A stretch of DNA of 64,000 nucleotides from a bacterium. Its GTDB lineage: Bacteria; Patescibacteriota; WWE3; 2-01-FULL-39-13; JAACPI01. Positions 10,112 to 63,713 of this stretch are shown in pieces. How positions within the stretch are numbered: position 1 is the first letter of the stretch; each line of letters begins with the position of its first letter. The stretch spans positions 115,698 through 179,697 of the forward strand of contig JAACPI010000001.1 in NCBI GenBank assembly GCA_009995545.1, read 5' to 3'. Below the pieces are notes generated by a model. It worked only from the letters and a program-made list of their open reading frames with translations, was not told the DNA's origin and ran no database searches. A program made the position numbers and the translations under genes.

Positions 10112-10819
10112 ATGGAAATAATATATTTAAATCACTCAAGCTTTTTAATTAAAACTAAATTGCAAGGAAACAAAATTATAAAAATTCTTTTGGATCCTTT
10201 TTCTAAAGAAATAGGACCAGATTTTAAAAGTACCGAGGCTGATATAGTTTTGATCTCCCACGACCACCCTGATCACAATAATTTGGCCGGTGTAAAAGGC
10301 TTGGACTTAAATACAGTAGGGGATGAATCCTTGGGTTCCAAGGGCTTAGGTCCTTACATTATTACTAAAGCGGGTCAATATGAGGTTGGTGGGATTCATA
10401 TAAAAGGGATATCTAGTTATCACGATAATAAAAAAGGAGAAGAAAGAGGTAAAAATATCATTTACACTATTTTTAGCGAAGGTTACAGAGTATGCTTTTT
10501 GGGCGATCTAGGACATAACTTAACAGATAATCAAGTAGAGGCTATTGGTGATATAAATACCTTGCTAATACCTGTTGGGGGTATTTACACTATTGATCCT
10601 GAAACTGCCAGTGAAGTAATTGGCCAAATAGAACCAAGTTTTGCAATTCCGATGCATTATAAAACTTCCTCGCACAAAGAAGAGTTAACCTTAAAACCTT
10701 TAGAGGAATTTACTAAACAAATGGGTGAGTCTGATCTTAAAACAAAAGACAGTTTTGAACCTCACGAAAGCTTATCTGACGAAACAGAAATAATAGTTTT
10801 AAAACCAACCTATTCTTAA
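10112..10819 (+). CDS. MBL-fold metallo-hydrolase
   Basis: 'LISHDHPDHNN' metal-binding motif and 'FLGDLGH'. Confidence 0.7.
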   Translation: MEIIYLNHSSFLIKTKLQGNKIIKILLDPFSKEIGPDFKSTEADIVLISHDHPDHNNLAGVKGLDLNTVGDESLGSKGLGPYIITKAGQYEVGGIHIKGISSYHDNKKGEERGKNIIYTIFSEGYRVCFLGDLGHNLTDNQVEAIGDINTLLIPVGGIYTIDPETASEVIGQIEPSFAIPMHYKTSSHKEELTLKPLEEFTKQMGESDLKTKDSFEPHESLSDETEIIVLKPTYS

Positions 10820-13628: not shown

Positions 13629-13637
13629 TTAATTAAA

Positions 13638-41685: not shown

Positions 41686-43023
41686 CTAAATCTTAATTAA
41701 TATCAAGGCTACCGAAAGAGCCGTTAGTAAGTTTAACAAAATAATCTCTAAATATGTATATCCTACGTCTTTTTTAATTATTTCTTTGGAGAAAGTTCTT
41801 AGGCTGAAATTATTTTTTATGTAAATAAAGCTGATTATGCCAAATAAAAAGGATCCTAAGGATTCTAATTTTCCAGTATCCAGTATAAAAAATAGTAACA
41901 TGGCACAAGAAGCAATAGATACAACGCTAAAAACACCTACCAAACCTTTTTTAATCAGTCTTGATTGTAAAGTTTCTCTTATATCTTGTATTAAATAAAC
42001 TGTAAAAATTCCTGCTATGAGCATTATTAAGTAATCTAAATCTGCAATATTTAGTTTTGTAATTAAACCCCCTGCAGAGAGTGTAAACAGAGCCCCTAAA
42101 AATAAAAACAGATTAGTACTAAAAGATTTCAAATTTAAAAGCCTTGTTGTTAAGTCGTGAAACCTGTCTCTTTTTTCAAAATAAAAAGCATAAAAACTGA
42201 CTACACCAAGAGTTGAGAATAGAATTCCTATATACTTACTAATATTCCAGGGGTAATAAAAAACTAATATTAGAGGGGCAAGTGTGTAAGCAAGTGTGGT
42301 AATAGTTCTTCTGAATCTGAAGTCTTTATTAGAATTCAAGTAGCTAACTACACTTATTATAAGTATTCCCATAAACCCTGTTATATAAGGAAGAATTATA
42401 TTTAGTGATCCTACCTCTAAAAAGGGTTGATATAAAAGTGTCGAGGCAGCTAATATTGTGGTAATAATTACTAAATTAGAGTATGTTACTAAATCTAACT
42501 TTTTATGAAATTTAGATATTACGGTTTGGGATAACCAAACAACTAAAACCAACGTGCTTGTAAATAGTATTACTTTCCAGTCATCCAGTTTGTTTTGTCC
42601 CCTTGTGTCGGCAATTATTTGACTATAGTAAAAATAAAAACTGTATAAAACTTGTATTACAAAGATATTTTTCAAAACGAATGCGCTAAGCTTAAGATTG
42701 TTCGTGTACTCTAGCTCTTCACTTTTAACCAATTTATAATTAACTACTAAATATCCTGCAAAGCTCGTACCTAAAAGTACCCCTGCGAGTTTATGCATGC
42801 CAAAATCATAAAAACCCGAAAAAAATATTATTGGGTATAAGAGGGCGTATAAAAAAGGGTGCTCTTCAAAAGTTTTGTACAGTAAAACTAGTAATATAAT
42901 TAGAACATAAGCTATTGCAAAGAAATTTGCCGTTACGCTTCCCGCAAATATATAGATATAAAAATAGAAAAATAATAAAGCATATGTAATTTCGCTTTTT
43001 AATATCTTTTTAACTAAGTTCAT
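41686..43023 (-). CDS. Large polytopic membrane protein (445 aa), hypothetical, between gyrB and ppa
   Basis: At least 10 hydrophobic helices and no recognisable motifs. Confidence 0.5.
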   Translation of the reverse strand: MNLVKKILKSEITYALLFFYFYIYIFAGSVTANFFAIAYVLIILLVLLYKTFEEHPFLYALLYPIIFFSGFYDFGMHKLAGVLLGTSFAGYLVVNYKLVKSEELEYTNNLKLSAFVLKNIFVIQVLYSFYFYYSQIIADTRGQNKLDDWKVILFTSTLVLVVWLSQTVISKFHKKLDLVTYSNLVIITTILAASTLLYQPFLEVGSLNIILPYITGFMGILIISVVSYLNSNKDFRFRRTITTLAYTLAPLILVFYYPWNISKYIGILFSTLGVVSFYAFYFEKRDRFHDLTTRLLNLKSFSTNLFLFLGALFTLSAGGLITKLNIADLDYLIMLIAGIFTVYLIQDIRETLQSRLIKKGLVGVFSVVSIASCAMLLFFILDTGKLESLGSFLFGIISFIYIKNNFSLRTFSKEIIKKDVGYTYLEIILLNLLTALSVALILIKI

Positions 43024-48868: not shown

Positions 48869-50074
48869 ATGCCTAAATACTCTTACAAAGCAAAGAACGG
48901 AACTGGACAAGATGTTGGTGGTGTAGTTGAGGCTGACTCTCAAAATATTGCAGTTTCCCTTTTAAAAGATCGGGGTTACATAGTTTACTCTTTACGACCC
49001 TATAAAAAAGAACTAACTGTGGAGTCCCTTCTATCCTTTAGAGGAGTTTCGGATACCGATAAAGTAAATTTTACCCAAAGTTTAGCCAGTATGACCAAGG
49101 CAGGATTGCCTTTAGCCAGTGCCCTAGAAATACTGACAGACCAGTCTAAAAACCCTAAAATGCGTGAGGTAGTACAAACGGCTCTTACTGATGTTGAGGC
49201 GGGTATGCCTTTATCTCAGTCATTAGCCAAATACCCGGACGTGTTTCAAGAAAATATAGTTTCATTAATTCAAGCCGGGGAGGCTTCCGGAAAAATCGCA
49301 GAGGTTTTGGAACGTCTTTCTTATACTTTAGAAAAACGTAGGGAGTTTACCGCTAAGGTTAAGGGAGCAATGATTTACCCTGTTATTATAATGATTGCAA
49401 TGAGTGCAGTTTTTTTGGTAATTGTAGTTTTTGTTATTCCAAAACTTGTTGATATGTACTCTAGTTTTGGAGTCGAGTTACCCTGGGCCACAAAAGCAAT
49501 GATATGGTTTTCCAACTTTATTAAAACAAAATGGTATTTAGTTTTGGCAATTATAGCGGGGTCGGTATACGGTTTTAAAACCTATGCTAAAACTACCAGT
49601 GGAGCACATAATTTAGGAAGGATGACCTTAAAAATACCTGTTTTCGGTTCAATTATGATTAAGCGTGATTTAACAGAGTTTACCAGATCGCTCTCCTTAC
49701 TTGTTTCAAGTGGTGTTGCTATTATTGATGCCTTATCTATATCTAGAGATTCTGTAGGCAATATTTTATTTAAAGAGGATATTTCAAGGTTTGTGGATGC
49801 TGTAAAAAGCGGAGGGTCTCTTTCGGATGCTATTAAGAAAAGTAGCAACTTTCCTCCAATTGTTTCTAAACTTATTAGAGTTGGTGAGGAGACCGGTACT
49901 ACGGATGATAGCTTAACTAATATTAGTAACTATTATGAAAAAGAAGTAGACACTTTAGTTAAAAACCTTTCAACTGCACTAGAACCCATGATTATGGTGG
50001 TTTTAGGGGTAATGGTTGGTGGTTTAATTGTTTCGGTAATTACCCCTATCTACAAATTAATGAGTCAATTCTAG
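48869..50074 (+). CDS. pilC: Type IV pilus platform protein PilC (GspF family)
   Basis: Duplicated GspF domains with three TM helices; 401 aa. Confidence 0.9.
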   Translation: MPKYSYKAKNGTGQDVGGVVEADSQNIAVSLLKDRGYIVYSLRPYKKELTVESLLSFRGVSDTDKVNFTQSLASMTKAGLPLASALEILTDQSKNPKMREVVQTALTDVEAGMPLSQSLAKYPDVFQENIVSLIQAGEASGKIAEVLERLSYTLEKRREFTAKVKGAMIYPVIIMIAMSAVFLVIVVFVIPKLVDMYSSFGVELPWATKAMIWFSNFIKTKWYLVLAIIAGSVYGFKTYAKTTSGAHNLGRMTLKIPVFGSIMIKRDLTEFTRSLSLLVSSGVAIIDALSISRDSVGNILFKEDISRFVDAVKSGGSLSDAIKKSSNFPPIVSKLIRVGEETGTTDDSLTNISNYYEKEVDTLVKNLSTALEPMIMVVLGVMVGGLIVSVITPIYKLMSQF

Positions 50075-50104
50075 TTATAATATGACTACAAGGAGGTGGT
50101 ATTT

Positions 50105-50611
50105 ATGAATAACAAAGCAAAAGCTTTTACTCTTATTGAACTTTTAGTTGTTTTAGCTATTGTTACTGTACTAGCCTTAGTATTCACTGTGGCCCTTAAT
50201 CCTTTTAAGAGGATTCAAGAATCTAGAGATAGTAAAAGACAAGCCGATTTACAGAGCGTTAGATCTGCTTTAGACATAGCTTTAACTGACGGAACTATAA
50301 CTTTAACTGGAACTGAGCTATCCCCCACTACTGGAAACTCTAAAACTGATACACGTGTTGCAGATGGTACCGGTTGGGTTAAATACACATTAATTGCCGA
50401 GAGTGGTTTAGCCGAACAAATTTCTATATTGCCTGAGGACCCACTTGGTAATAGTGCACCTTGTAACGGTTACGAATTTTCTTCTGATGGAACTTACTAC
50501 GAACTAAAAACTTGTTTTGAGACCACTAAGTATCAAGGATATTACACTACAGATGGTGGGAATAACGCAGATCGATGGGAACTCGGTAGCAAACCTGGTT
50601 TAACATTGTAA
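50105..50611 (+). CDS. Type IV pilin (likely major pilin); prepilin with Ala at -1
   Basis: 'MNNKAKA|FTLIELLVVLAIV' class-III signal with Glu at +5. Followed by a strong terminator; located between pilC and pilD. Confidence 0.75.
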   Translation: MNNKAKAFTLIELLVVLAIVTVLALVFTVALNPFKRIQESRDSKRQADLQSVRSALDIALTDGTITLTGTELSPTTGNSKTDTRVADGTGWVKYTLIAESGLAEQISILPEDPLGNSAPCNGYEFSSDGTYYELKTCFETTKYQGYYTTDGGNNADRWELGSKPGLTL

Positions 50612-50624
50612 ATTTATTATTTTT

Positions 50625-50660
50625 GTTCCGGGGGCCTTTCGTTCCCGGAACTTTAAGTTT
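50625..50660 (+). terminator. Rho-independent terminator after the major pilin gene
   Basis: GTTCCGGG-(11-nt loop)-CCCGGAAC, an 8-bp GC-rich stem, followed by TTTAAGTTTT. Confidence 0.55.
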
Positions 50661-50782
50661 TCCTACTATATCTAGTTTCTAAACTAGCTTGGTAAGTTCA
50701 AAAGTGCTTTTTGTTCCAACCTTGTTATTTTTTTTTGATTAATATTCTGTATCCAAAATTCTAAATCCTATATACTAACCCC

Positions 50783-51673
50783 ATGCTTTATTTGTTACCT
50801 GCTTTTATATTTGGTACTGCACTGGGGTCATTTATAAATATGGCGGTTTATCGTTTAAATAAAAATCAGGGCTTTGGTGGTAGGTCATACTGCGATTACT
50901 GTAAAAAGACACTGAGTACAACGGCCCTAATCCCATTTTTTTCCTATTTTTTACTAAAAGGTAAGTCTAATTGTTGCAATAAAAAACTTTCTAAAGAATG
51001 TGTGTTTGTGGAGTTTATGAGTGGTATTTTTATATTTGTTATATCTTTGTATTTTTTAGGTTACCTAAACAGTTTTGGTGTGGTCCCCTTTTATTCTTTT
51101 AATAAGTCTATTTTAATAGGTTATTTTTTGTTTTATTCAAGTATTTTTGTAATTTTAGCAACTATATTTATTTACGATTTAAAATTTATGGTGGTTCCGA
51201 TGTTTTTTGTATACTGGGGATATGCTCTTGTGGCTGCCTTTAAGATTGTTGAATACTTTTTGTACAGAACTTATCTTGTTAATTCTCTGTCGTCGACAAC
51301 CCTGGGAAAATATATCTTACAAACAGACTATTTAAATAACAGATTAAATTTTTTTATTCAGGATAACATGTGGAGTTTATTAGTAGCCTCCGGTATTGCC
51401 TTATTCTTTATTTTTTTGGTATTTATTACTAAAGGTAAAGGAATGGGTGTTGGTGATATTTTTGTAGCTCCTTTATTATCGTTCTTACTCCCATACCCCA
51501 ATGCTGTTTTATACGTATTTTTATCGTTTATTATCGGTGGGATTTTTGGGTCTTTTTTGCTTTTATTTACAAAAGCAGGTAGAAAAACAGCTGTTCCATT
51601 TGTGCCTTTTTTAATTATTGGGTATCTATTTGCACTAATTTTTGGAGATGCTATTATTAGTTTATTAGTGTAA
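50783..51673 (+). CDS. pilD: Prepilin peptidase PilD (A24 family)
   Basis: N-terminal zinc motif 'CDYCKK…CCNKK', polytopic membrane domain, 'DIFVAPLLSF…GGIFG'. Confidence 0.85.
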   Translation: MLYLLPAFIFGTALGSFINMAVYRLNKNQGFGGRSYCDYCKKTLSTTALIPFFSYFLLKGKSNCCNKKLSKECVFVEFMSGIFIFVISLYFLGYLNSFGVVPFYSFNKSILIGYFLFYSSIFVILATIFIYDLKFMVVPMFFVYWGYALVAAFKIVEYFLYRTYLVNSLSSTTLGKYILQTDYLNNRLNFFIQDNMWSLLVASGIALFFIFLVFITKGKGMGVGDIFVAPLLSFLLPYPNAVLYVFLSFIIGGIFGSFLLLFTKAGRKTAVPFVPFLIIGYLFALIFGDAIISLLV

Positions 51674-51703
51674 GACTATTAATATAAATTTTGTCCAACT
51701 GCC

Positions 51704-52102
51704 ATGTTTAAATCAAAATCCCAAGGATTCACACTTATTGAACTTTTAATTGTTATTGCTATTTTAGGTATGCTTATGGTAGTTGTTTTAGTTTTAATAA
51801 ACCCCGCCAAAGTATTAGACAAATCTAGAACAAAAACGGCAGCTACAGTTGCTGCTAAGATCTGTACGGCTGTTCAGGTTTGCCAGGTTAACGCCGCTGA
51901 TGGAATCTGTAATGCTGCCGGTCTTACGGCTGCAACGCCAGCTAATGTACCCAATGGTATAACTTCTATGGTGGCTGCAGACAATCTTATAACAGTAAAA
52001 ACACCACAGTCTACAGGTATCAAAAATTGTACTGTTACATGTGTTCCTAACGTTGGTGAAATAGTATTCCTTGCAGATGCTACAAGTGCTTGTACTCAGT
52101 AA
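51704..52102 (+). CDS. Prepilin-type (pseudo)pilin, Cys-rich
   Basis: 'MFKSKSQG|FTLIELLIVIAILGML'. Confidence 0.75.
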   Translation: MFKSKSQGFTLIELLIVIAILGMLMVVVLVLINPAKVLDKSRTKTAATVAAKICTAVQVCQVNAADGICNAAGLTAATPANVPNGITSMVAADNLITVKTPQSTGIKNCTVTCVPNVGEIVFLADATSACTQ

Positions 52103-52107
52103 TTTTA

Positions 52108-52494
52108 ATGAAAAAAAGCGCTTTTACACTAATTGAATTGTTGATAGCCTTTACAATTTTAGGTCTTTTAACCAGTACGATAATACTTCTTATAAAACCT
52201 CAAGAGATGAGAAATAGAGCACAAGATGCGGTTAGAAAACAAGATATTAGTGTAATCGCCGGATCCTTAGAAAGATACTACGCAGACAATAATAAATACC
52301 CTGCTAGCTTACCTGTGTCACCAAATTCCTTTGCAGCAAATAGTATTACTTATCTTAAGGTTATGCCTAAAGATCCAGACGGTGCTGTTGGTTATGTTTA
52401 TTCCCAAACTACCAACCAGGATTTTAGTATCTGTACCACCTTAGAAGTACCTGGTAGTGAAACTAATCCTTTTTGTATAAAGAACGCTTTTTAA
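52108..52494 (+). CDS. Prepilin-type minor pilin
   Basis: 'MKKSA|FTLIELLIAFTILGLL'; start trimmed from 52090. Confidence 0.7.
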   Translation: MKKSAFTLIELLIAFTILGLLTSTIILLIKPQEMRNRAQDAVRKQDISVIAGSLERYYADNNKYPASLPVSPNSFAANSITYLKVMPKDPDGAVGYVYSQTTNQDFSICTTLEVPGSETNPFCIKNAF

Positions 52495-52505
52495 TTAAAG
52501 TAAAA

Positions 52506-52988
52506 ATGTTTAAGTCTAAATATTTTGCCTTTACCCTTTTAGAACTTTTATTTGTAATTGCCCTGCTTAGTATTTTAAGCGGAGTAACTTATTTAATAAT
52601 CAATCCAAAAAAACAATTAGCAAAATCTAGAGACGCTCAACGGCTTGCGGATATCGCCACACTAGTTACTGCTATTCAGGAATATAATTCAGAACATGGT
52701 ACCTTTCCTGACGATGCAGAGGTTACTCGAGTTAGTAATCAACTCGCAGTAGGAGACAACTTATATTTATCTACGGGTAGTTGGATAAACGTTAATCTTT
52801 CTGAATTTTTGCCTAAAATTGTGATTGATCCCTTAAATACAGGGCAATATGTTTATAGATACCAGCACAATAATATTGGTTACGAGGTAGATACTACGTT
52901 CGAAAATTATAGTACTAAGCAAATAGAAGACGGGGGTAATAACGCAAATAAGTTTGAACTTGGCACAGACTTAACTATATTGGATTAG
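52506..52988 (+). CDS. Prepilin-type minor pilin
   Basis: 'MFKSKYFA|FTLLELLFVIALLSIL'; start trimmed from 52473. Confidence 0.7.
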   Translation: MFKSKYFAFTLLELLFVIALLSILSGVTYLIINPKKQLAKSRDAQRLADIATLVTAIQEYNSEHGTFPDDAEVTRVSNQLAVGDNLYLSTGSWINVNLSEFLPKIVIDPLNTGQYVYRYQHNNIGYEVDTTFENYSTKQIEDGGNNANKFELGTDLTILD

Positions 52989-53131
52989 TTAATTCAGTGT
53001 AATTGGTAATGAGGTGTTTTAAATATTCATGTCCGGTTAGTTTAAATAAATTCTAAATCTTGTATTCAATATCTGTCCTTTTTAACACTCCCCTATTCAT
53101 AAACAAGTTAAAATGCTCTACAATATAAGTA

Positions 53132-53641
53132 ATGCCAAACTCATTTTATTCGAATAGCTTAGGTTTTACTTTAATAGAACTTTTAATAACTATTTCTATT
53201 ATGGCTATACTGTCTGCTATGGTTTTTCCTGGTTTTGCAGGATTTGCCGATAATCAACAGGTACAACAACAAACTTTAAACGTAGTCTCCGACGCAGAAA
53301 TTTCCAAAAACAAAGCTTTAGCTGGAGCCTACTCTACTGGATCTACTACTAAGTCTGCTTACTGGGGAATTATTTTTTGTAGCAATAGTAATAATGACGA
53401 ATATACTTTAACTGCTTTCGACGACACCGGATCTCCTTTAACTGGAATTTCTACTTCAGATACTAAACTTGTAAAGCTTCAAGGTGGGGTGTCATTTAAT
53501 TGTGGTACTACAGAAAAAAGTTGGGTGTTCGAAAGATTAACAGGGGCACCTTTTTTAGACGAGGGGGATGTTAAAATCAGTAAAGGGACCCGGGCAAGAA
53601 CTATATTATTGGAGCCCTCCGGTGCTATTTCCATACAATGA
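53132..53641 (+). CDS. Prepilin-type minor pilin
   Basis: '…SNSLG|FTLIELLITISIMAIL'. Confidence 0.7.
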   Translation: MPNSFYSNSLGFTLIELLITISIMAILSAMVFPGFAGFADNQQVQQQTLNVVSDAEISKNKALAGAYSTGSTTKSAYWGIIFCSNSNNDEYTLTAFDDTGSPLTGISTSDTKLVKLQGGVSFNCGTTEKSWVFERLTGAPFLDEGDVKISKGTRARTILLEPSGAISIQ

Positions 53642-53642
53642 T

Positions 53643-54089
53643 ATGTTTATAAAAAAGTATAAAGCACAAACTTTAGTTGAGGTTACAATGTCTATAGGAA
53701 TTGCAGTTATTGTAATTGTGGCTTTAGTAGTTTTAGCAACTAGTGCCCTTCGAAATGCACAAGAATCTTTACGTAAAAGTGAAAGTAGTAAGTTTGCTAA
53801 TGCAGGTATAGAAGCAGTTATTTTTTATAAGAATGTAAAGGGCTTTTCCGGAGTAGCTGGTGGAAATTATCAAATAGATAATGCCGGGGGAACTTCCGTT
53901 TTAACCCCTGTATCTACTCCAATAGACGGATTTGTAACTATAGCATCCCCCAGTGGGTTAGTATACCAAAGAAAAATTGAAGTTACTAAAGCCGGCACAA
54001 CAATGGATGTTACAAGCACTGTTAGGTGGGAAAGTACCCAAGGTACTAAGCAATCGCAAGTTAACCGAAAAATTACAGATTGGCGATGA
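53643..54089 (+). CDS. Prepilin-like minor pilin (degenerate signal)
   Basis: 'MFIKKYKA|QTLVEVTMSIGIAVIVIVALVV' with Glu at +5; start trimmed from 53568. Confidence 0.55.
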   Translation: MFIKKYKAQTLVEVTMSIGIAVIVIVALVVLATSALRNAQESLRKSESSKFANAGIEAVIFYKNVKGFSGVAGGNYQIDNAGGTSVLTPVSTPIDGFVTIASPSGLVYQRKIEVTKAGTTMDVTSTVRWESTQGTKQSQVNRKITDWR

Positions 54090-54649
54090 AAAATATAAAT
54101 AACAAAAAACGAGGTTTTACTTTAGTCGAGTTACTACTTTCGATCGGAATTATGGGTATAGTTGTAGGTATTCTAGGAGATGTTTTTGCAACCGTGATTA
54201 GAGCATATCGACGTGCTGAGGTTTTCGGCTTAACTGAAAAAAATGGAAACTTTATATTAACTACAATTGAGCAAGACATTAGGGCTTCTATCGGTGTCAC
54301 TGTTGACGAAAGTACTAATAAAATTACTATTATTAAACCTACGTCATCTGGTACCGAGTCAATAGCATATCAGTTTACGTTTTGTAACGGCAGTGACAGT
54401 GGGGCTGTAACTAGAAATGGAAATGACTTACTTACTTCTGACAACCCTGTATCAAACTCCACTTTATACCTAGAGGCATTTCCAAACGGCAACCCTACAG
54501 GTTTAGAGCCTATAAAAAGAATAAATGATACAGCTAAATACGATATAGTTTATATATCTTTTGTTTTGTCAGATAAATGCGATCCTACTGTACAGAATAA
54601 CGAAGGGTACTATCAGACAGCTGTCAATTTACGGGGAGGTATACAGTAG
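54080..54649 (+). CDS. Prepilin-type minor pilin
   Basis: '…NNKKRG|FTLVELLLSIGIMGIVVGIL'. Confidence 0.7.
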   Translation: MAMKNINNKKRGFTLVELLLSIGIMGIVVGILGDVFATVIRAYRRAEVFGLTEKNGNFILTTIEQDIRASIGVTVDESTNKITIIKPTSSGTESIAYQFTFCNGSDSGAVTRNGNDLLTSDNPVSNSTLYLEAFPNGNPTGLEPIKRINDTAKYDIVYISFVLSDKCDPTVQNNEGYYQTAVNLRGGIQ

Positions 54650-54707
54650 TTTTAGTGACCTAAACACTTATTTAAAATGTAAAAATGTGTTAAATTTTTA
54701 TTAATCA

Positions 54708-55523
54708 ATGCCTAATATTTTATATCTTTTAAATCAAAAAAAACCTGCTTTTGCAACATTGGTTGCGGTTTCGATAGTTATGTTTACCTCACTACTGGTA
54801 GGTTTGGCAGTGTCTCAACGGGCTGGGTCGGGAATTCGCAGGTCTACTTATACTGGGCAAACAGATCAAGCTTTTTCTTGTGCTACTTCAGGTGTAGAGG
54901 ATGCCTTACTTTGTGTTACAGACAAAGAAAAAGCTGGCCAAGACCCTACAACTTGTGTAAAACCACCACAAGACTTAACCAGCTGTTCATATAGTTATAC
55001 TGTCTCTTCTCTTACGGATACTAGCATAACTATCGACTTATTAGAAAAAGACTCTGTACAACAGTTTAATGTGGCTGGTGATGCAAGTGTAAAAGTTACT
55101 TGGGGTGTAAATTCCTCGGGTGGAGAAAAGCCGGGTATTGAGATTTCTTATGTTTATAAAAATGGTACTGCTTTTGAAATGAAAAAGAGTGCTTATATTT
55201 GTAACGGTATTCCTAATACTTCCGATCACTCGCCTACCCCTACGGGTTTTACTAGTTCAACAGCGGTATCAGAAAAATGTAGTCAAACAATTACACTTGG
55301 TTCAACAAATTCTCCTGCAGTACTTAGAATAAGGCCATTTTTTTCTGATGTGAGCTTAACCGTAGGTGGCCTAAGTGGTTCGAATAGCCAGGGTTATAAA
55401 ATTAATTCACAAGGAACTGCGGGTACGGTTACTAGAAACATCGAGGTTTTACGAATGAACCCCCAGCTGCCAGCAATATTTGACTATGTTTTATACTCTG
55501 AAGAAGGTTCCATCACCAAGTAA
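54708..55523 (+). CDS. PilX/ComGG-like minor pilin (hydrophobic N-terminus, no Glu+5)
   Basis: '…NQKKPA|FATLVAVSIVMFTSLLVGLAV' followed by a Cys-containing globular domain. Confidence 0.5.
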   Translation: MPNILYLLNQKKPAFATLVAVSIVMFTSLLVGLAVSQRAGSGIRRSTYTGQTDQAFSCATSGVEDALLCVTDKEKAGQDPTTCVKPPQDLTSCSYSYTVSSLTDTSITIDLLEKDSVQQFNVAGDASVKVTWGVNSSGGEKPGIEISYVYKNGTAFEMKKSAYICNGIPNTSDHSPTPTGFTSSTAVSEKCSQTITLGSTNSPAVLRIRPFFSDVSLTVGGLSGSNSQGYKINSQGTAGTVTRNIEVLRMNPQLPAIFDYVLYSEEGSITK

Positions 55524-55529
55524 CAGGCT

Positions 55530-56159
55530 ATGAAATATATAAAAAACAAAAAGATATATGTTTTTATACCTGTTTCTATGGGTGTGTTATTTATTGTACT
55601 TGGATACTTATTTTTTGACTCTTATTTTTTAAAACAAAAGAAAGTCTCTCCACAAAATCCCTCCTTGGAGAATTCCAAAGAATACTCTAATTATAGTGAA
55701 GAATCTTTGTCTGTTTATGACAAGGTTATTGAACAATCTTTAACAGACTATTTTAATAAGAACTCAACAGATTCCCCTGTATCTTACTCTTCTAGGTCTC
55801 TTCCTCTTGAATACTTGCAAGATTTACCAAAAAAAGCCCGCTACAGTATACAAGGCACTGACTATGTTAGACATTTGGCCTACCTAAAGCAGGTGGTTAA
55901 AGAAGGTCAGCTTTATAAGTTTGATTTAGTGGGTGGGTATGTTGCGGATGTAAACTATAGCGACAAAGTAAAACTTCTAGATGCGGACTACGGTTTTGAC
56001 TCAGATAAAAATCTTGTCAGAAACGAGTTTTTTCCTGTCGATACTAAAAATATAAATCTTCTAAAAGTGGGTGCCCCTGTTTATCTAGTTTTTACAGAGG
56101 ATCAAGTAGATTCATTAACCTTATTCCCTACAGAAGTTGTAATACTAAACTATGAATAG
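55530..56159 (+). CDS. Membrane-anchored hypothetical protein in the pilus locus
   Basis: Single N-terminal TM helix ('IYVFIPVSMGVLFIVLGYLFF'); 209 aa. Confidence 0.45.
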   Translation: MKYIKNKKIYVFIPVSMGVLFIVLGYLFFDSYFLKQKKVSPQNPSLENSKEYSNYSEESLSVYDKVIEQSLTDYFNKNSTDSPVSYSSRSLPLEYLQDLPKKARYSIQGTDYVRHLAYLKQVVKEGQLYKFDLVGGYVADVNYSDKVKLLDADYGFDSDKNLVRNEFFPVDTKNINLLKVGAPVYLVFTEDQVDSLTLFPTEVVILNYE

Positions 56160-59100
56160 AACCTTATTTTTAACATTATTTATTTTGCCGTTGGTTTTTT
56201 TATCTGTGAAAAATAAACCGGTTAACGCCGGAATTTCGTGTGGTTGGGAGTGTAGCGGTACTAGTTATAGTTGTAAAGATGCTAACGGTACAACGGAAAC
56301 TAGGGATACTACTTGTTCTGATGGTTCTCCTGGAACCTGTGTGGATACTTGTACCGGCAGTATAAGTGGTGCGGAGAAAGAATGCGGTGGTAAGAAGGTA
56401 AGCGTGTCCTGCAGTTCTGCAACTAAGTCTTCTACAGGATGTTGTGGTGGGGGTGGTATTACTACCTCAAACCCTCCGGAAGGTTTTTTAGATATAGCTA
56501 GTTGTACTAACTTAAAACTTCGTACAGTTGGTTGGGCGAAAGACAGAGATGTGCCTGATAAAGTCAAGGTTGATATCTACCTTGACGGTACTGATCCCTC
56601 TAATAAAGTAGCTACTCTAACCTCAGATCAGTTTAGACAGAGTCTTCATGATGGGGGTTACGGAGACGTTCAATTTAGTGGCGATAATCTTAAAACTCTT
56701 ACAGTTGGTACCCACCAACTTCGTGCTAAAGCAAAAGACCCAAACGGTACTGAAGATAACTGGCTTTTTTGTGGCGCAAATAACCCCAATTGTAAGGGCG
56801 GTACTGACTTAGGCGGGTGGGTAGTTGGTGGTTACTTGGAATTTACATGCGACTCCCCTATAGATACGGAGGCTCCTGCATGTGGAACTATTACGGTTAC
56901 CCCTACACCTCCGGTTAGTTCTGGTAGTGTAACAATAACTGCTACTGCTACAGACAACGTGGCTGTTACCCGTGGCGGTCTTTATGTATTAGAGCCAAAT
57001 GGTAATAATGCTGAGTTATACTCTAACAATAATCCTAGCTCTGGTAGTTTAAGTAAGGTTTGGACAACCCCCTCAACTGACGGCAGCTACCATATTCAAG
57101 CTAATTGGTATGATGCCGCTGGAAACTTTAAACAATGCCCTTACGATTTTGTAATAGACAAAACTCCCCCGGTGTGTGGCCCAATAACTTTTACACCAGA
57201 TGTAAATAATTCTAAAAAAGTAATAATTAAAGGAAGAGCAAGTGATAGTGGCTCCGGTCTTGTACGGGGAGGTCTATACGTAGGAACTTCTCCAGGAAGT
57301 GGTAGTGCTAACTACCCTATTATTCCCAATACCTATACTTTTGGACCTCAGGCTAATGGGGAAATTTCCGAAGAGTGGGATACAACATCCTTGCCCCAAG
57401 GAAAGTACGCAGTTGCATTTAATTGGTGGGATGCCGCCGATAATGGTGATTCTGCAACCTACGCGGGTAATCACCCAGGAAACTTTGTTCAATGTAGATC
57501 AGAATATAATGTAGCTCCCCCAGTTCCGGACTGTGTTGGTTTAAAGGTTTACGATGCAGATTTTAACCCTGTAGCATCTAACAAGCTAATCTCAGGTGAG
57601 GAGTATTACTCACTCGTCACCGCAGATCCCGGGCCTTACGCCAAGCAAGTAGATACTGTTGGGGTGAGCGTACTAGATTCTGCTCTGTCCTTTGTGCCAA
57701 ATAATTACAACCCTAATGTTAACGATGTAAATAAACAAGTATGTACTACTAAAAATATTGGTTATTATACCTCTAAATTTGGGTATAACCTTACTAAGGT
57801 AGAATCTAGATATGTAGGCCCTATAAAATTTGATAATCCTGGAACTTACTCTCTATACGGTAGGGTTTGGAACGACAGTATTTCTGAGTGTAAGTCCGCT
57901 TGTGTCGACGGGCCTCCCAGGTATTTATGCAATCAGGGCCAGAGTGTTTGTAAATCTGAGGTTACGGTTACAGATCTGCCTACCCCTAATGATTTAAGCT
58001 GTGAGAGTATAACCTCAAACCCTCTTGGACCGGTTTTAGCTACCGACTCAACCTCTTCTTTGGAATTAGTAGTAAATAACTTCACTAATCAAGTTGGTTT
58101 TTATAATTGGAGTGCTCAAGCGGGATCGATTTCTACTCTACAAGATCCTAACTGTGCACCGGGAAGCCCTACCTGCAATCTTCCGGTTGGAAATAGAGTT
58201 TTAAGTGGTGCTGTGTATAGTACTCCTACAAATATAAAAGGTTCATCTGTTATTGATACTATAACTTTTAGTGCCACTGCTAATTCTAAAACCGTAAACT
58301 GTACAAAACAATTTAAAGTATGCTCCCCTATAAATGTGGTGTTATCGTTTGATCCGCCTGAGGTGAATTTTGTTAAGGGGGAGAGTTTTGAAATTTTTGT
58401 TAATTCAAGCATTAAAGATTTTAGTAATGTAAACACGTATCCAGATTTTGATTATGAACTCCTCCTAAATTGCCCCACGGGAGTTAGCTGTGTTTTTGAA
58501 AACGGTACCACAAGTAACGTAGTAAAATTTTCCATATTAAATGGCAATACATTTAGTTCTAAAGTAATTGTTAATTCGGCTAATGCGGCTAGTGGACTAT
58601 TGACAGTGGTTGGTAATTCTTTAGATAATAGTCTTTGTCTGGAAAATCCCAATAATACTGTCAGCGCTCCTTTAGAAGTTTCCGGTACCTTTGATATTGA
58701 CTTGAAGGTTGAAAAAGTTGATACAAGTAATGCCCTGAGTCCTTCAAGTGAATATTGTAAAAACGGGGTTAGCCGAAATACTTATAGTGACAATTTAGAG
58801 CTGAAAGTATCTAAATACACCTTGTCTGGAATCTTTAGGGATAGTACCTCCGCTGGGCTGAAAAATGGCAGTAAGTTTCCAAACCTTGTCTTTGGTTTTG
58901 ACTACCAGATCTCTGCTTCGCTAGCTGGAAATACTGGATTAGAGGTAAAATGTATTAAAAGTGACTACGAAAATGTCTCGGGTAATCAGATTTCTCTTTT
59001 AAATAAAAATCTTGATACCACTAAAACTTCAACACCTTTGTTAGTAGTTGTAGGTCCCCCTACGCCAGATTCTTGGTTTCAGGCACTAGGTGGTTCTGTT

Positions 59101-59739
59101 TTTTCTTTTGGGGATATAAAATCTGCGGTTCCGGATAACAAAGGAAAGTTTTTGGACAGCTATTCGAATGTTTCCTCTGGGGTGCTAATTGCTGGAAACG
59201 ATATAAATCCCCCTGTGGATACCTCTAAACAGTCGGACAGGGTAGTTAAAAGTTATCCGAGTGTATCTAAACCCAGCTTAAAAAACTTGGCAAAATTATT
59301 TACGGCAAATTCCAATTCTTCAAATCTTTCTGACATAGACTTTGATGCTACAAAAACTAAGTTTTATTTTATTGACGGTGATTTAGACTTTGATAATAAC
59401 GATGAATTTGAGGCTAAAAAGGGCTATGTACCGGTTGTATTTGTAAACGGTGATGTGAATATCTCTGGAGAGGTTAAACGTTTAGATTCTTATATATTTG
59501 CAAAAGGTAAGATAACGATTAACTCCAATATTAAAGACCCCTCGGATAGTGAGGTTAATATTATAGTTAACGGGGCTCTAATAGCCAAAAACATAGAGTT
59601 TGGAAAACTTCCCTTTTTACTTTCCACAGACCCTTCAGAAAAAATTCAGTTTACACCTAATATATTTCTGGGTGCCACTTCAGATATTTTAGGATTTCCT
59701 GCTCACGAGGTTAAGATATATGTAAAAAACATTGATTAA
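56152..59739 (+). CDS. Giant (1195 aa) secreted Cys-rich protein with internal about 100-aa repeat domains and a beta-helix-like C-terminus; candidate pilus-associated adhesin
   Basis: Signal peptide 'MNRTLFLTLFILPLVFLSVKNKPVNA'. Cys-rich N-terminus. Duplicated 'VTRGGLYV…WYDAAGN…PPVCGPITFTP' and 'LVRGGLYV…WWDAADN…PPVPDC' modules. Embedded between the minor pilins and pilMNO. Confidence 0.6.
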   Translation: MNRTLFLTLFILPLVFLSVKNKPVNAGISCGWECSGTSYSCKDANGTTETRDTTCSDGSPGTCVDTCTGSISGAEKECGGKKVSVSCSSATKSSTGCCGGGGITTSNPPEGFLDIASCTNLKLRTVGWAKDRDVPDKVKVDIYLDGTDPSNKVATLTSDQFRQSLHDGGYGDVQFSGDNLKTLTVGTHQLRAKAKDPNGTEDNWLFCGANNPNCKGGTDLGGWVVGGYLEFTCDSPIDTEAPACGTITVTPTPPVSSGSVTITATATDNVAVTRGGLYVLEPNGNNAELYSNNNPSSGSLSKVWTTPSTDGSYHIQANWYDAAGNFKQCPYDFVIDKTPPVCGPITFTPDVNNSKKVIIKGRASDSGSGLVRGGLYVGTSPGSGSANYPIIPNTYTFGPQANGEISEEWDTTSLPQGKYAVAFNWWDAADNGDSATYAGNHPGNFVQCRSEYNVAPPVPDCVGLKVYDADFNPVASNKLISGEEYYSLVTADPGPYAKQVDTVGVSVLDSALSFVPNNYNPNVNDVNKQVCTTKNIGYYTSKFGYNLTKVESRYVGPIKFDNPGTYSLYGRVWNDSISECKSACVDGPPRYLCNQGQSVCKSEVTVTDLPTPNDLSCESITSNPLGPVLATDSTSSLELVVNNFTNQVGFYNWSAQAGSISTLQDPNCAPGSPTCNLPVGNRVLSGAVYSTPTNIKGSSVIDTITFSATANSKTVNCTKQFKVCSPINVVLSFDPPEVNFVKGESFEIFVNSSIKDFSNVNTYPDFDYELLLNCPTGVSCVFENGTTSNVVKFSILNGNTFSSKVIVNSANAASGLLTVVGNSLDNSLCLENPNNTVSAPLEVSGTFDIDLKVEKVDTSNALSPSSEYCKNGVSRNTYSDNLELKVSKYTLSGIFRDSTSAGLKNGSKFPNLVFGFDYQISASLAGNTGLEVKCIKSDYENVSGNQISLLNKNLDTTKTSTPLLVVVGPPTPDSWFQALGGSVFSFGDIKSAVPDNKGKFLDSYSNVSSGVLIAGNDINPPVDTSKQSDRVVKSYPSVSKPSLKNLAKLFTANSNSSNLSDIDFDATKTKFYFIDGDLDFDNNDEFEAKKGYVPVVFVNGDVNISGEVKRLDSYIFAKGKITINSNIKDPSDSEVNIIVNGALIAKNIEFGKLPFLLSTDPSEKIQFTPNIFLGATSDILGFPAHEVKIYVKNID

Positions 59740-60168
59740 ATGACCTTTAAGCAAAAAATATTAAGAATCGTTAAACCCACTTTAAAATTTGTAATGTTAG
59801 TGCTTTTTATATCTTTTTTGGCCCTTCCGGTTATCCAGAAATACAAGGTTAGTAATTCTGGTGTATTTTTGCAAAATAACTTTGACGTTTTAAATTTATC
59901 CAAAGATGCAAAGGTTAATCAAATATATGAGGTATCCCTGTTACAAGATTCCGTGGAACCAGAATCTATCTATTTATATTCGGGAGATGTTATTAGATTT
60001 ATTAATAAACAAGACTCAGAAGTGACTATACTTATAAATGGTAATCAGGCTGTAGTCAATCCTTCTAAAGACTATTTTAGTATCTTTGATACTCCCGGAG
60101 TCTTTAAAGTAGGAGTTAATTATAAACGTATTCCAAAAACTTTTAGTGTGGAGGTGCATGTTAAATAG
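59740..60168 (+). CDS. Small membrane-anchored hypothetical protein, translationally coupled to the giant protein
   Basis: ATG immediately follows the upstream TAA. N-terminal TM helix. Confidence 0.45.
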   Translation: MTFKQKILRIVKPTLKFVMLVLFISFLALPVIQKYKVSNSGVFLQNNFDVLNLSKDAKVNQIYEVSLLQDSVEPESIYLYSGDVIRFINKQDSEVTILINGNQAVVNPSKDYFSIFDTPGVFKVGVNYKRIPKTFSVEVHVK

Positions 60169-60408
60169 GACTTTGGCCCTTCCTAAATCACCCCCCTTTC
60201 GCTAAAAAACTTTACTTAACCCAAAATTGGGGGTATAGCTAAAATTTATTGGGAGTAATTTCAAAATTAAATCCGTTACTTTAGGTTTTGAGTTAGATAT
60301 GATATGTTCTATACTTGTATATAGATTTAGCTAATGCAAAGTAAAGTAATTATTTTTTTGTAAATTTTTGGTTTGTTTTACAGAAGCTATACTATATAAC
60401 CACCTGCT

Positions 60409-61449
60409 ATGAACTTACTTGGTATAGATCTAGGATCTCAATATTTAAAATCGGTCGAAATTCAGAGAAATTCTGATGGTACAACAGAGCTGATTTCCTT
60501 ATCTAAGGTAGACATATCTGGCTTAGATATGTTTTCTGGTAAAGTCTTCGATCCTAAACCCATAACCGACTTTTTACGAGATTACGTGATGCAAAATAAA
60601 TATATTGGTAAATCTGTAAATTTGGGACTACCCTCTTCCTTAACTTATATCAGAATAGATTCTTTCCCTAAGCTTACTGGTAAGGAGTTAGAAAATGCCG
60701 TTAACTTAGAGTTACAAAATCAGACAGTTGTACCTTTAGCCGAGTCTAGTGTTAGTTTTCAAGTTTTGCCTAATTCTGGTAATACAGAAAAGACCGATGT
60801 TCTTTCCGTTATTGCACCAAAAACACTTACAAATAATCTTTTAGCTGTTATAAAAGACTCAGGTCTTAATCTGCAATCCATCGAACCCAATGTTTTAGGT
60901 ACTATAAGGGGTGTTTTAAACGAGGAGGCCGTTAACCCCGCCACAGTAGTTTTAGATATTGGGTATAAGTTCTCCGATATTTCGGTTTTTGCAGACAATG
61001 CTCTTAGATTTACTAGAAATGTTCCTACAGGAATGTCCTCTTTAATTAAAACTGTAGCTCAGGGTTTAAATTTGGAAGTAATTCAAGCCGAAGAATATAT
61101 TAAAACTTATGGACTCTCGGCGGAAAAGCTTAACGGTAAGGTAAGAGACGCAGCTGCTTCTGTAATAACCCTTCTTTTAGACGAAGTTAAAAGGTCAAAC
61201 ACCTTTTATGAAACAAGAGGCGGTAGCTCAAAAATTAAAAGACTTGTATTGGCAGGTGGCGGTGCCTATATTCCTGGATTAGTTGTACATGCTGCTAATT
61301 ATCTTGGCTTGGAGGTAGAAATAGCAAACCCTTGGGACCAAATAAGAAATTTAGGTGCCTACTCTAGTAACTTGGCCGATTTAGAGCCCCAAGCTCCTTT
61401 GTACACAACTTCTGTTGGTCTATCCCTTAAAAAATTGTTGGATAGTTAA
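60409..61449 (+). CDS. pilM: Type IV pilus assembly protein PilM (actin-like ATPase fold)
   Basis: 'MNLLGIDLGSQYLK' N-terminus and an actin-like fold; 346 aa. Confidence 0.85.
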   Translation: MNLLGIDLGSQYLKSVEIQRNSDGTTELISLSKVDISGLDMFSGKVFDPKPITDFLRDYVMQNKYIGKSVNLGLPSSLTYIRIDSFPKLTGKELENAVNLELQNQTVVPLAESSVSFQVLPNSGNTEKTDVLSVIAPKTLTNNLLAVIKDSGLNLQSIEPNVLGTIRGVLNEEAVNPATVVLDIGYKFSDISVFADNALRFTRNVPTGMSSLIKTVAQGLNLEVIQAEEYIKTYGLSAEKLNGKVRDAAASVITLLLDEVKRSNTFYETRGGSSKIKRLVLAGGGAYIPGLVVHAANYLGLEVEIANPWDQIRNLGAYSSNLADLEPQAPLYTTSVGLSLKKLLDS

Positions 61450-61488
61450 TACTTTCAAAAACAGTATTAACAATATAGAATATTAGTA

Positions 61489-62061
61489 ATGCCAGACAAT
61501 ATTAATCTAATTCCTTCTGAAGTAGTAAAAGAAAGGTCTCTAAAGAGGACTTACCTAAGAGTATTGTACGGGTCTTTGATTTTCTTAGTAATGATCTTGT
61601 TAGTTTTAGGAGTGGTGGTTTTTTTGCAGTCTAAATCTCAATCAGACTTAAATTTAACAAAATCAAGGATTAGTTCAAAGCAGGATGAGATTGAGAGTTT
61701 AAAGGATGTCGAGCGTAAAGCTTCCTCTTTAACTGCAAAGCTTAACTACATTGATCAACTACTGAAAAACAAAATTTATTTCTCTAAGATAATGAACGAG
61801 TTGGATTTAAAATCCAAGCCCGGTATAACTATCACACAGGCCAATGTAACTGATGCTTACACAGTTGAAATTACAGGTCTTTCTACTAGTACCACCACTT
61901 TACAGACATACATTAATGATTTGGTCAAAGAGCCCGATAACTTATTTTCCGATGCTAGAATCTTAGAAGTAAGTATAAAAGAAGGCTCTGGTCTTGCATC
62001 ATTTAAGGTTTCGGTTAAGGTGTCTAAAGAAGATTTAATAAAAACTACTGCATTAAAGTAA
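61489..62061 (+). CDS. pilN: Type IV pilus assembly protein PilN
   Basis: 'INLIPSEV' motif, a single TM helix and a coiled coil. Confidence 0.7.
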   Translation: MPDNINLIPSEVVKERSLKRTYLRVLYGSLIFLVMILLVLGVVVFLQSKSQSDLNLTKSRISSKQDEIESLKDVERKASSLTAKLNYIDQLLKNKIYFSKIMNELDLKSKPGITITQANVTDAYTVEITGLSTSTTTLQTYINDLVKEPDNLFSDARILEVSIKEGSGLASFKVSVKVSKEDLIKTTALK

Positions 62062-62063
62062 AA

Positions 62064-63074
62064 ATGGAAACAGGAATAGATAAAGAACAAATCGTAAAGG
62101 CTAAATACCAAGTAAAGGAGTATGCACAGTTGATACTATCTTTTTTGGTTTTTGTTGGGGCTATTTTATTATTTGTATTTGTTATAAAACCAACATTTGC
62201 AAAATATCAAAATAATAAACTAGAGATTACCAATCAACTAAGTCAAGAAATGCTCTTAGACAAAAAGTTGGCTGAATTGCAAAAGGCTAAAGAGCTTCAA
62301 TCTAGTATCGAAAGTAATATTTTATTAGCTAATCAAGCAGTCCCCGACGATTCAGATATACCTACAGTTATGGCAATGATTCAAGACGTGTCTTCTAAAT
62401 CGGGTGTGAAGGTATCTGCTTTTAGTTATATTGGTTTAGGTAACTCTGTAGTTGTAGTAGAAACCCCCACTCCCGCTGTTCCTCAAGATGGATCCTCAGG
62501 TGAGTCCCCTGTTAATAATGGTCTTGAATCTCCTGTGGATTCAGAATACTTCGATGCCTTTAACCTGAGTATTTCTGTTCTTGGAAAATTTGACAATCTT
62601 AAGGATTTTACAAAAAAAATCGAGAGTTCCCGAAGGGTTTTAGATATGAGTGGTTTTTCTTATAGTATTGAAAAAGAAAACGAACAAATAACTAGTGATT
62701 TTTATACTCTTAAAGTTCAATTGACTTCTTATTATAGGTCCTTTGCAAATGTGGCTCCCCTAGTAGCTCTAGATCAATATTCTGGAACTATCTCGGACCT
62801 AAATGAAATGGTTTACTACGAGGTAGATTTATCTAACACCACAATAGGCAGAGATGACCCATTTAAAACTAATAATGCTAACCCTAGCTCTGGTTCAACG
62901 TCAGGCTCTACTTTTTTTGGAGGTTCAGGTAGCGGAGGTACTACTACAAATTCTAGTGCTCCAAATCAAGAGAATCCCGGTGTAAATGTAGTAGAACCTG
63001 TTCCTGACCAAGGAGCTCAGACCGTAGACGTTCAGCAGATGCTTAAGGATATGGTTGCCAAAGAGGGTTTATAA
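62064..63074 (+). CDS. pilO: PilO-like pilus assembly protein with Gly/Ser/Thr-rich C-terminal tail
   Basis: N-terminal TM helix, a coiled coil and a PilO-like domain. The 'GSTSGSTFFGGSGSGGTTT' tail is unusual. Confidence 0.55.
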   Translation: METGIDKEQIVKAKYQVKEYAQLILSFLVFVGAILLFVFVIKPTFAKYQNNKLEITNQLSQEMLLDKKLAELQKAKELQSSIESNILLANQAVPDDSDIPTVMAMIQDVSSKSGVKVSAFSYIGLGNSVVVVETPTPAVPQDGSSGESPVNNGLESPVDSEYFDAFNLSISVLGKFDNLKDFTKKIESSRRVLDMSGFSYSIEKENEQITSDFYTLKVQLTSYYRSFANVAPLVALDQYSGTISDLNEMVYYEVDLSNTTIGRDDPFKTNNANPSSGSTSGSTFFGGSGSGGTTTNSSAPNQENPGVNVVEPVPDQGAQTVDVQQMLKDMVAKEGL

Positions 63075-63713
63075 ACTAGGTTTAAATCTAGAATTGGCTT
63101 TTCTCCAATCTTCAATTTCTTTATGATTTCCCTCTGTTAGAACTTTAGGTACTTCTGTAGAGTCGTACAGCGCGGGTTTAGTGTAAACTGGGTGTTTAGA
63201 CAAGACGTTCTTACCATAAGATTCTTTTTCGGTAGATTCTAGTTTCCCTAAAACTCCGGGTATTAGTCTAATAGCACTTTCTATCAGACACAAAGAAGGA
63301 GCTTCTCCACCCATAGTTATAAATTCACCTATACTAATCTTATAGTCCACATATTTAAAAACTCTTTCATCAAAGCCCTCATAACGGCCATTTAAAATTG
63401 TTACTGATGAAGATTTTGAAATTAGAATTGCAGTTTTCTGGCTGTATAGATCTCCTTTTGCGGTTAAGGCTATTACCTTACCCTTATTTTTAAGGGAATC
63501 CAGTGCTTTTTTAACCACGTCTACTTTGATAACCATCCCCGCTCCCCCACCGTACTGTGTGTCGTCTATTCTTGGAAACCTACCTACCCCAAATAATTTT
63601 AAATCAACAATATTAAATTCTATTATGTTATTGTTGATGGCTTTTTTTACAAGTGATGTATTTATAAAAGAATCGTAGAATTCAGGGAAAGCGGTAACAA
63701 TATTTATGAGCAT
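63069..63713 (-). CDS. trmD: tRNA (guanine37-N1)-methyltransferase TrmD
   Basis: 'GGGAGMV', 'ILNGRYEGFDERV' and 'GGEAPSLCLIESAIRLIPGVLG' SPOUT-knot motifs. Confidence 0.9.
   Translation of the reverse strand: MLINIVTAFPEFYDSFINTSLVKKAINNNIIEFNIVDLKLFGVGRFPRIDDTQYGGGAGMVIKVDVVKKALDSLKNKGKVIALTAKGDLYSQKTAILISKSSSVTILNGRYEGFDERVFKYVDYKISIGEFITMGGEAPSLCLIESAIRLIPGVLGKLESTEKESYGKNVLSKHPVYTKPALYDSTEVPKVLTEGNHKEIEDWRKANSRFKPSL

Follow-up and report, generated by a model that had tools for sequence, protein, structure and literature searches.

Several proteins encoded with type IV pilus (T4P) genes are presumed, argued or proposed to act at the pilus tip, and a further candidate is described here from a Patescibacteria genome (GTDB lineage WWE3; 2-01-FULL-39-13; JAACPI01). 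The gene is an open reading frame (ORF) at 56152..59739 (+), with an ATG start, and encodes a 1195-aa protein. It lies in a 64,000-nucleotide stretch of contig JAACPI010000001.1 (assembly GCA_009995545.1, positions 115,698 to 179,697), which is termed the window and to which coordinates given without a locus handle refer. We propose that the product is a Sec-exported modular adhesin of the T4P system, whose C-terminal beta-solenoid would dock to the minor-pilin tip complex and whose variable N-terminus would bind the target. The probability of this interpretation is put at roughly one half.

The PilY1/PilC proteins of Proteobacteria are large Sec-secreted non-pilins encoded directly after the core minor pilins (fimU-pilVWX type), and they are presumed to serve as both tip adhesin and plug. 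ComZ of Thermus thermophilus is a GspK-like pilin in which an ice-binding-like triangular solenoid is inserted before the last strand, and a tip location has been argued (PMC6561018). The same solenoid is reported in all cyanobacterial PilX proteins, where it is proposed to be a tip plug that replaces PilY1 (preprint, bioRxiv 10.64898/2026.02.12.705559). Large proteins are also encoded in the T4P loci of Saccharibacteria, e.g. PilX1 and PilX2 of Nanosynbacter lyticus TM7x, which bear non-PilD signals and accessory domains of a lectin-like type and are proposed tip adhesins; one large protein of these loci is needed for efficient host binding (PMC11623550). Lastly, the tapirins of Caldicellulosiruptor are encoded beside a T4P locus (bioRxiv 10.1101/359786).

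Domain layout of the protein

The translated ORF is identical to a deposited sequence (NCT55371.1, locus tag GW755_00840). The genome is AT-rich, at about 34% G+C; its closest relatives by synteny are Patescibacteria, and the organism is probably Candidate Phyla Radiation-like. A chance ORF is ruled out, as 59% and 42% identity is kept in syntenic loci. The layout is as follows.

56152..56229 (+): Sec-type signal peptide, residues 1-26, predicted cleavage VNA↓G
56230..56466 (+): Cys-rich N-terminal cap, residues 27-105, with 10 Cys, then a Gly/Thr linker
56467..56859 (+): domain A, residues 106-236, conserved, predicted to be mainly beta
56860..57531 (+): two tandem immunoglobulin (Ig)-like repeats of Big_13 type, residues 237-340 and 341-460
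57532..57987 (+): domain B, residues 461-612, with 5 Cys, the most evenly conserved part of the family
57988..58686 (+): two predicted beta-sandwich (Ig-like) domains, residues ~613-845, all-beta in AlphaFold2 (AF2) at a predicted local distance difference test score (pLDDT) of 50-77
58687..59013 (+): poorly conserved connector, residues 846-954
59014..59739 (+): C-terminal module, residues 955-1195, with a predicted solenoid core (1064-1154) and a conserved tail that ends in IYVKNID, then stop

Relatives of the full-length protein are very rare. About 5.8 billion clustered proteins hold three clusters, i.e. the protein itself, P0002 (59% identity) and P0003 (42%), and the family alignment finds no relative in 185,579 species-representative genomes.

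The signal peptide, assigned by eye from the sequence, starts with an Arg-containing n-region, followed by a hydrophobic core of 16 residues and then the VNA↓G site, and the -3/-1 pattern is kept in P0002 and P0003 (VEA↓G and VSA↓D). The protein contains no prepilin motif and gives no N_methyl match. A true pilin or pseudopilin is ruled out by the Sec signal and the missing prepilin motif. Cysteines number 34, ten of them within residues 30-98, and an alignment shows nine of these ten to be invariant in both homologues; the cap as a whole is 75% identical to that of P0002 and 52% to that of P0003. Domain A is 89% and 50% identical, respectively. It has no Pfam or NCBIfam match, and the full-length AF2 model is of low confidence there.

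The ~100-aa repeats (residues 241-343 and 339-463) align with each other at 32% identity with an E value of 1e-11, and thus their resemblance is not due to chance. One repeat passes the Pfam Big_13 threshold (PF19077; residues 285-336, 29.6 bits vs a cut-off of 27, E 9.8e-7). P0003 is without the Ig repeats and has a different insert instead. The otherwise unrelated 1965-aa protein P0004 (L002 4383-10280) contains a repeat with 66% identity to repeat 1, and P0005 contains one with 54% identity to repeat 2. Each repeat is therefore closer to these proteins than the two are to each other, which points to an exchange of Ig cassettes among the surface proteins of different organisms.

Domain B shows 66% identity to both P0002 and P0003, with no Pfam or PDB sequence match and an AF2 confidence below 50. 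The Ig-like assignment of residues ~613-845, made from the model and without a Pfam match, is tentative. The connector is 37% identical in P0002 and 28% in P0003, with pLDDT below 35. The per-domain identities show that conservation among the three family members is stronger in the N-terminal domains than in the C-terminal part. The full-length AF2 model, built from a 3-sequence alignment, has a mean pLDDT of 42 and is too poor for use, which leaves the Cys-rich cap, domains A and B and residues 846-954 without an assigned fold. Besides the Ig matches, the Pfam, NCBIfam and PDB sequence searches yield nothing meaningful.

A preliminary description, made from the sequence of the window alone, had pointed to a secreted protein with a signal peptide, a cysteine-dense N-terminus, two repeated modules of about 100 aa, a C-terminus suggestive of a beta-helix and translational coupling on both sides. 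These points stand: the C-terminus models as a beta-helix, the gene junctions are as described below, and the motifs that it quoted (CGWECSGTSYSCKD, CVDTCTGS, CCGGGG, RGGLYV, WYDAAGN/WWDAADN, PPVC/PPVP) are all in the translation.

The C-terminal module

An exhaustive profile search with the module finds 424 cluster representatives at E <= 1e-3. It is nearly always at the extreme C-terminus, and the proteins that carry it range from 95 to 2140 aa. Otherwise unrelated proteins have it as well, such as P0004 and the products of genes adjoining those of P0002 and P0004. Among the best 150 module proteins, 77 have a Met start, a hydrophobic signal-like N-terminus and a length of at least 300 aa, and a Cys-rich cap (4 or more Cys within 90 aa) is present in 39 of these 77 proteins with an intact N-terminus. 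The N-terminal domains differ from one module protein to the next and include CarboxypepD_reg, SdrD_B, PKD, Laminin_G_3, Big_7, B_lectin and Ig. A constant C-terminal module combined with variable N-terminal domains is the pattern of a conserved anchor with a variable binding part.

Judged by its structural model, which is of moderate confidence, the module looks like a triangular beta-solenoid of the ice-binding-protein type; the best structural matches are ice-binding-type solenoids and not lyase folds. The extreme C-terminal tail is conserved in the alignment, yet it is of low confidence in the monomer model. This is expected of a segment that becomes ordered only upon binding a partner.

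Sequence profiles indicate that the module is distantly related to Pfam DUF7305 (PF23981), which is matched by 15 of 82 scanned module relatives. P0045 exceeds the curated cut-off of 27 over the solenoid core with 28.4 bits. The window protein itself gives no match at E 0.1; the link is thus transitive only, by way of relatives found with the profile. DUF7305 has no described function, and no mention of it was found in the literature searched. Searches of PDB sequences with the C-terminal profile give no meaningful match, and an NCBIfam scan of the 82 module proteins matches none of the pilus families, PilX and HpsA included. In none of the best 150 matches is the module fused to a pilin, cupredoxin-like or 209-aa-like domain, and fusions thus lend no support to a pilin partnership.

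Tandem pairs of module genes are frequent (L001 10934-12775, L068 3083-4924, L002 10943-13594, L005 4646-6322). In L001, the closest relative, a second module protein of 613 aa follows the 139-aa gene. The window has no second module gene, and a 240-nt gap (60169-60408) precedes pilM.

Comparison with known systems

The position of the 1195-aa gene is that of PilY1: a large Sec-secreted non-pilin is encoded directly after the minor pilins, and by analogy a role as tip adhesin and plug may be considered. However, no PilY1 or vWA family is matched at E <= 0.1 in Pfam or NCBIfam, in agreement with the preliminary description, which had noted the parallel in gene order and the missing signatures. 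The protein differs from PilY1 in being without the seven-bladed beta-propeller (PF05567) and vWA, and its C-terminus models as a solenoid. In addition, the organism is of the monoderm type, and there is no secretin in its pilus locus. PilY1/vWA membership is ruled out by the lack of a domain match together with the different C-terminal fold.

With ComZ and cyanobacterial PilX the protein shares its encoding with GspH/I/J/K-like minor pilins, the prediction that it is no PilD substrate and, as far as the model goes, the triangular ice-binding-protein-like solenoid. The tip location and plug role proposed for those proteins (PMC6561018; 10.64898/2026.02.12.705559) may by analogy extend to it. 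There are clear differences, however. Their solenoid is within a GspK-like pilin that has an N-terminal hydrophobic helix, and lies between the last two strands, whereas that of the window protein forms the C-terminal end of a Sec-secreted non-pilin without a pilin domain and is preceded by ~930 residues of other domains; a small PilX-like protein is encoded separately (54708..55523).

PilX1 and PilX2 of TM7x have been described as pilins with C-terminal accessory domains, whereas module proteins start with a cleavable Sec signal and end in a conserved solenoid. As to tapirins, their beta-helix is the cellulose-binding part. The module matches tapirins more weakly than it matches ice-binding-type solenoids, and the window protein has no sequence similarity to the Calkro_0844-type C-terminal beta-helix.

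The window protein therefore belongs to none of the PilY1, ComZ/PilX and tapirin families, since their defining features were looked for and are missing, although it may still work like one of them. The novel architecture claimed earlier survives in part. A solenoid on a Sec-secreted non-pilin would be new, but ice-binding-like solenoids are already known from ComZ and cyanobacterial PilX, and large non-prepilin tip adhesins have already been proposed.

Genomic context

The gene lies between four minor pilins and pilMNO, inside a complete pilB-pilT-pilC-pilin-pilD operon. Its ATG is 8 nt within the 3′ end of a 209-aa ORF, and the ATG of a 142-aa ORF (59740) directly abuts its TAA. The genes around it are the following.

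45872: pilB, upstream of the 1195-aa gene
47791: pilT, upstream of the 1195-aa gene
48869: pilC, upstream of the 1195-aa gene
50096: first pilin, probable major pilin, 171 aa, GTG start, KAFTLIELLVV motif
50783-51673: prepilin peptidase
51704, 52090, 52473: three further pilins
53132..53641 (+): minor pilin, GspH-like
within 53568..54089 (+): minor pilin, PilV/GspI-like
54080..54649 (+): minor pilin, PilW/GspJ-like
54708..55523 (+): minor pilin, PilX/GspK-like, 271 aa, without Glu5
55530..56159 (+): 209-aa membrane-anchored protein, no Pfam match
59740..60168 (+): 142-aa membrane-anchored cupredoxin-like protein
60409 (+): pilM (Pfam PilM_2, E 9e-29), first gene of the pilMNO block 60409..63074
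61489 (+): pilN (Pfam PilN, E 2e-3)
62064-63074 (+): pilO (Pfam PilO, E 6e-8)

The minor-pilin set (53132..55523) gives matches to N_methyl, GspH and related families. The 271-aa protein appears PilX-like from its position and N-terminus. Its homologues in L001 and L004 occupy the corresponding place, and three ORFs in the Saccharibacteria locus L015 are also homologous.

Eight contigs, the window included, are long enough to judge the context of a module gene; L003 and L067 are too short for this. Pilus genes adjoin the module gene in five of the eight (the window, L001, L004, L006 and L068).

L001 (P0002): peptidase, pilins, 266-aa PilX-like gene, 197-aa gene, large gene, 139-aa gene
L004 (Patescibacteria): PilW-like, PilX-like, cupredoxin-like, module protein, pilMNO, trmD
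L006: small gene, module protein, pilMNO, pilB, pilT, pilC, pilins, pilD
L068: module protein, second 613-aa protein, pilM
L002, L005, L007 (7.8-16 kb): no pilus gene in view

The short contig of P0003 (L003) has the same two flanking genes as the window. The preliminary description had proposed examining co-occurrence with pilin genes, and had held that homologues mainly outside pilus loci would speak against a pilus role. As to co-occurrence, the locus of P0002 has the same peptidase, pilin block and flanking genes as the window, that of P0003 has the two flanking genes, and the module is immediately upstream of pilM in many Patescibacteria. The second point has a mixed outcome, with pilus genes beside the module gene in five contigs and none in three.

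A further sample was anchored on pilM and comprises 59 loci from species-representative genomes, every ORF of which was searched with the module profile. In eight of nine Saccharibacteria-type loci with upstream sequence, a module protein of 720-907 aa ends less than 100 nt before pilM. In the ninth (L015) it is 5.7 kb upstream of pilM, with PilX-like genes alongside and a pilin block after it. A Parcubacteria locus, L058, has a module protein directly upstream of pilM. The N-terminal domains of the Saccharibacteria proteins are unrelated to those of the window protein. Their placement immediately upstream of pilM fits the layout of TM7x locus one. Position and size make a link to TM7x PilX1 plausible; a search from a Saccharibacteria module protein gave no named TM7x match. 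In one contig labelled 'Candidatus Nanoarchaeia archaeon' (L012, DATIHE010000023.1), a bacterial pilM is directly preceded by a module gene, as in Saccharibacteria, and this contig is probably mis-binned.

The two coupled small proteins differ in their distribution. The 209-aa protein has homologues at the same position in L001 (47% identity) and L003 (36%) and none elsewhere among the fetched loci; it is thus confined to three close relatives. Homologues of the 142-aa protein adjoin module proteins in L001 (10525-10944), L003 (3995-4417) and L004 (1391-1855), and L002 holds two of them beside module proteins (10285-10803 and 13591-14034). The L004 member matches Pfam Cupredoxin_1. The window member has no Cys and hence no type-1 copper site. 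Its pairing with module proteins persists in L002, where pilus genes are not in view, and this suggests that the cupredoxin-like protein is a dedicated partner of module proteins.

Other features of the pilus locus

Promoter and terminator scans of 50000-63500 are at chance level, apart from one strong hairpin at 50625-50651 (11-bp stem, 7 G-C pairs). This is the only strong terminator-like hairpin of the locus, and such a hairpin after the pilin at 50096 is what one typically finds for a major pilin gene with high expression. The ORF 53568-54089 as listed overlaps the preceding pilin gene by 74 nt. Its likely true start is an internal Met before KKYKAQTLVEV, from which the product is pilin-like with Ala-Gln at the cleavage site instead of the usual Gly-Phe. 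The PilO-like protein (62064-63074) is long, 336 aa compared with 238 aa in L004 and 228 aa in L006, and has a C-terminal Ser/Gly/Thr-rich low-complexity extension of ~80 residues. For the prepilin peptidase candidate (50783-51673) the A24 N-terminal domain is the sole match at E <= 1e-5. The Peptidase_A24 catalytic family, matched in L006, is not matched here, and the catalytic part may be divergent. A 445-aa ORF at 41686-43023 (-), between gyrB and an inorganic pyrophosphatase gene, has no Pfam match at E <= 1e-5.

Proposed function and alternatives

What has been observed is how the domains are laid out, where the gene sits in the operon, that the module recurs beside pilM, and a resemblance in fold. 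The adhesin interpretation builds on these as follows. The C-terminal beta-solenoid module and its conserved tail would be the attachment end, docking onto the priming and tip complex of the four minor pilins encoded just upstream, with the PilX/GspK-like 271-aa protein the most likely partner. The module would plug and cap the tip, as is proposed for the inserted solenoid of ComZ and cyanobacterial PilX or for PilY1 of Proteobacteria. The N-terminal two thirds, i.e. the disulfide-rich cap, domain A, the two Ig repeats, domain B and the beta-sandwiches, would project outward and bind the target surface, which for a Candidate Phyla Radiation (CPR)-type episymbiont is probably the host cell envelope. 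The membrane-anchored 209-aa and 142-aa proteins would probably hold the secreted protein at the membrane, or hand it over there, before it is loaded on the pilus.

Several findings favour this interpretation: the gene is inside a complete T4P operon and coupled to both neighbours, the full-length homologues share synteny, and module genes are directly upstream of pilM in L004, L006, L068, the Parcubacteria locus and eight of the nine Saccharibacteria-type loci. There is also a precedent in the large proteins with non-PilD signals of Saccharibacteria T4P loci (PMC11623550).

A more specific form may be put forward tentatively, as a speculation that could well prove wrong. The pilus tip would be 'split', with the solenoid supplied in trans on a Sec-secreted protein that docks to a PilX-like minor pilin by strand addition of its tail. 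Any N-terminal cassette, whether Cys-rich cap, lectin or Ig array, could then be mounted, giving CPR episymbionts exchangeable heads for host recognition, with the cupredoxin-like protein as loading factor.

It should be pointed out that a number of findings weigh against a tip adhesin. Its tip location and its binding to minor pilins are what we infer. The module model is of moderate confidence, and the Foldseek matches are not significant, although the same proteins rank first. The resemblance to ComZ is structural only, as no sequence link connects the module to the ComZ, HpsA or PilX families. The best 150 module proteins show no prepilin motif and no match to a three-protein PilX-like profile. 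There are also small proteins with hardly anything beyond a signal peptide and the module. Three of the eight contigs judged have no pilus gene in view, and three Parcubacteria/Moraniibacteria pilM loci are without the module. Some 40 Gram-negative pilM loci have no module protein either, but these make a poor control, since in such loci the minor-pilin genes usually lie elsewhere. In particular, the module may be a general surface anchor.

This last possibility is a serious rival, given that the module occurs away from visible pilus genes and is never fused to a pilin in the matches examined. The protein would then be a cell-surface adhesin off the pilus, and the module a general envelope anchor of Patescibacteria with a partner in the wall, S-layer or membrane, e.g. 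the cupredoxin-like protein; co-transcription with pilus genes would reflect no more than a common role in host attachment. The 424 module clusters, which include members on contigs such as L002, L005 and L007, agree with such an anchor, as do the frequent tandem copies (L001, L002, L005, L068) and the module/cupredoxin-like pairing that L002 keeps away from pil genes. A general anchor does not readily account for the placement directly upstream of pilM, which is strikingly regular across distant lineages, for translational coupling within the minor-pilin block, or for a fold common to the solenoid of known tip pilins. On balance we consider it less likely, though it is the alternative that deserves most attention.

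The opposite polarity, in which the solenoid is the binding or catalytic end, as in tapirins or phage tailspike depolymerases, and the N-terminal part a stalk or anchor, is improbable. The tapirin genes beside a T4P locus (bioRxiv 10.1101/359786) offer a parallel, and the greater conservation of the N-terminal domains in the three-member family is in its favour. Across the superfamily, however, it is the module that stays constant while the N-terminal domains vary, which fits an anchor better than a specificity determinant. Nor do the structural matches to ice-binding-type solenoids rather than lyase folds, the lack of sequence similarity to tapirins, or an N-terminus that after signal cleavage has no recognizable anchoring feature support this polarity.

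Least probable of all is a priming or plug factor of little adhesive role that starts or stabilizes the filament in a monoderm without secretin and PilY1; the PilY1-like position, the plugs proposed for cyanobacterial PilX (10.64898/2026.02.12.705559) and the minimal proteins of signal peptide and module are compatible with it, but a plug by itself does not readily account for ~900 residues of Cys-rich and Ig-like domains, and this reading overlaps with the tip-adhesin interpretation instead of excluding it.

Significance

How episymbionts of the CPR/Patescibacteria recognize and hold their hosts is little understood. Type IV pili are the best candidates, and CPR pilins are too divergent for comparison across the group. 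A module that marks secreted proteins of pilus loci in Saccharibacteria, Parcubacteria-type genomes and the lineage of the window would provide a sequence handle on candidate host-binding proteins in any genome of this kind, and the module alignment suffices to build a profile for it. Tip architecture in monoderm ultrasmall bacteria without PilY1 could then also be modelled in concrete and testable terms. If the module is instead a general surface anchor, it still defines a large uncharacterized family of CPR surface proteins.

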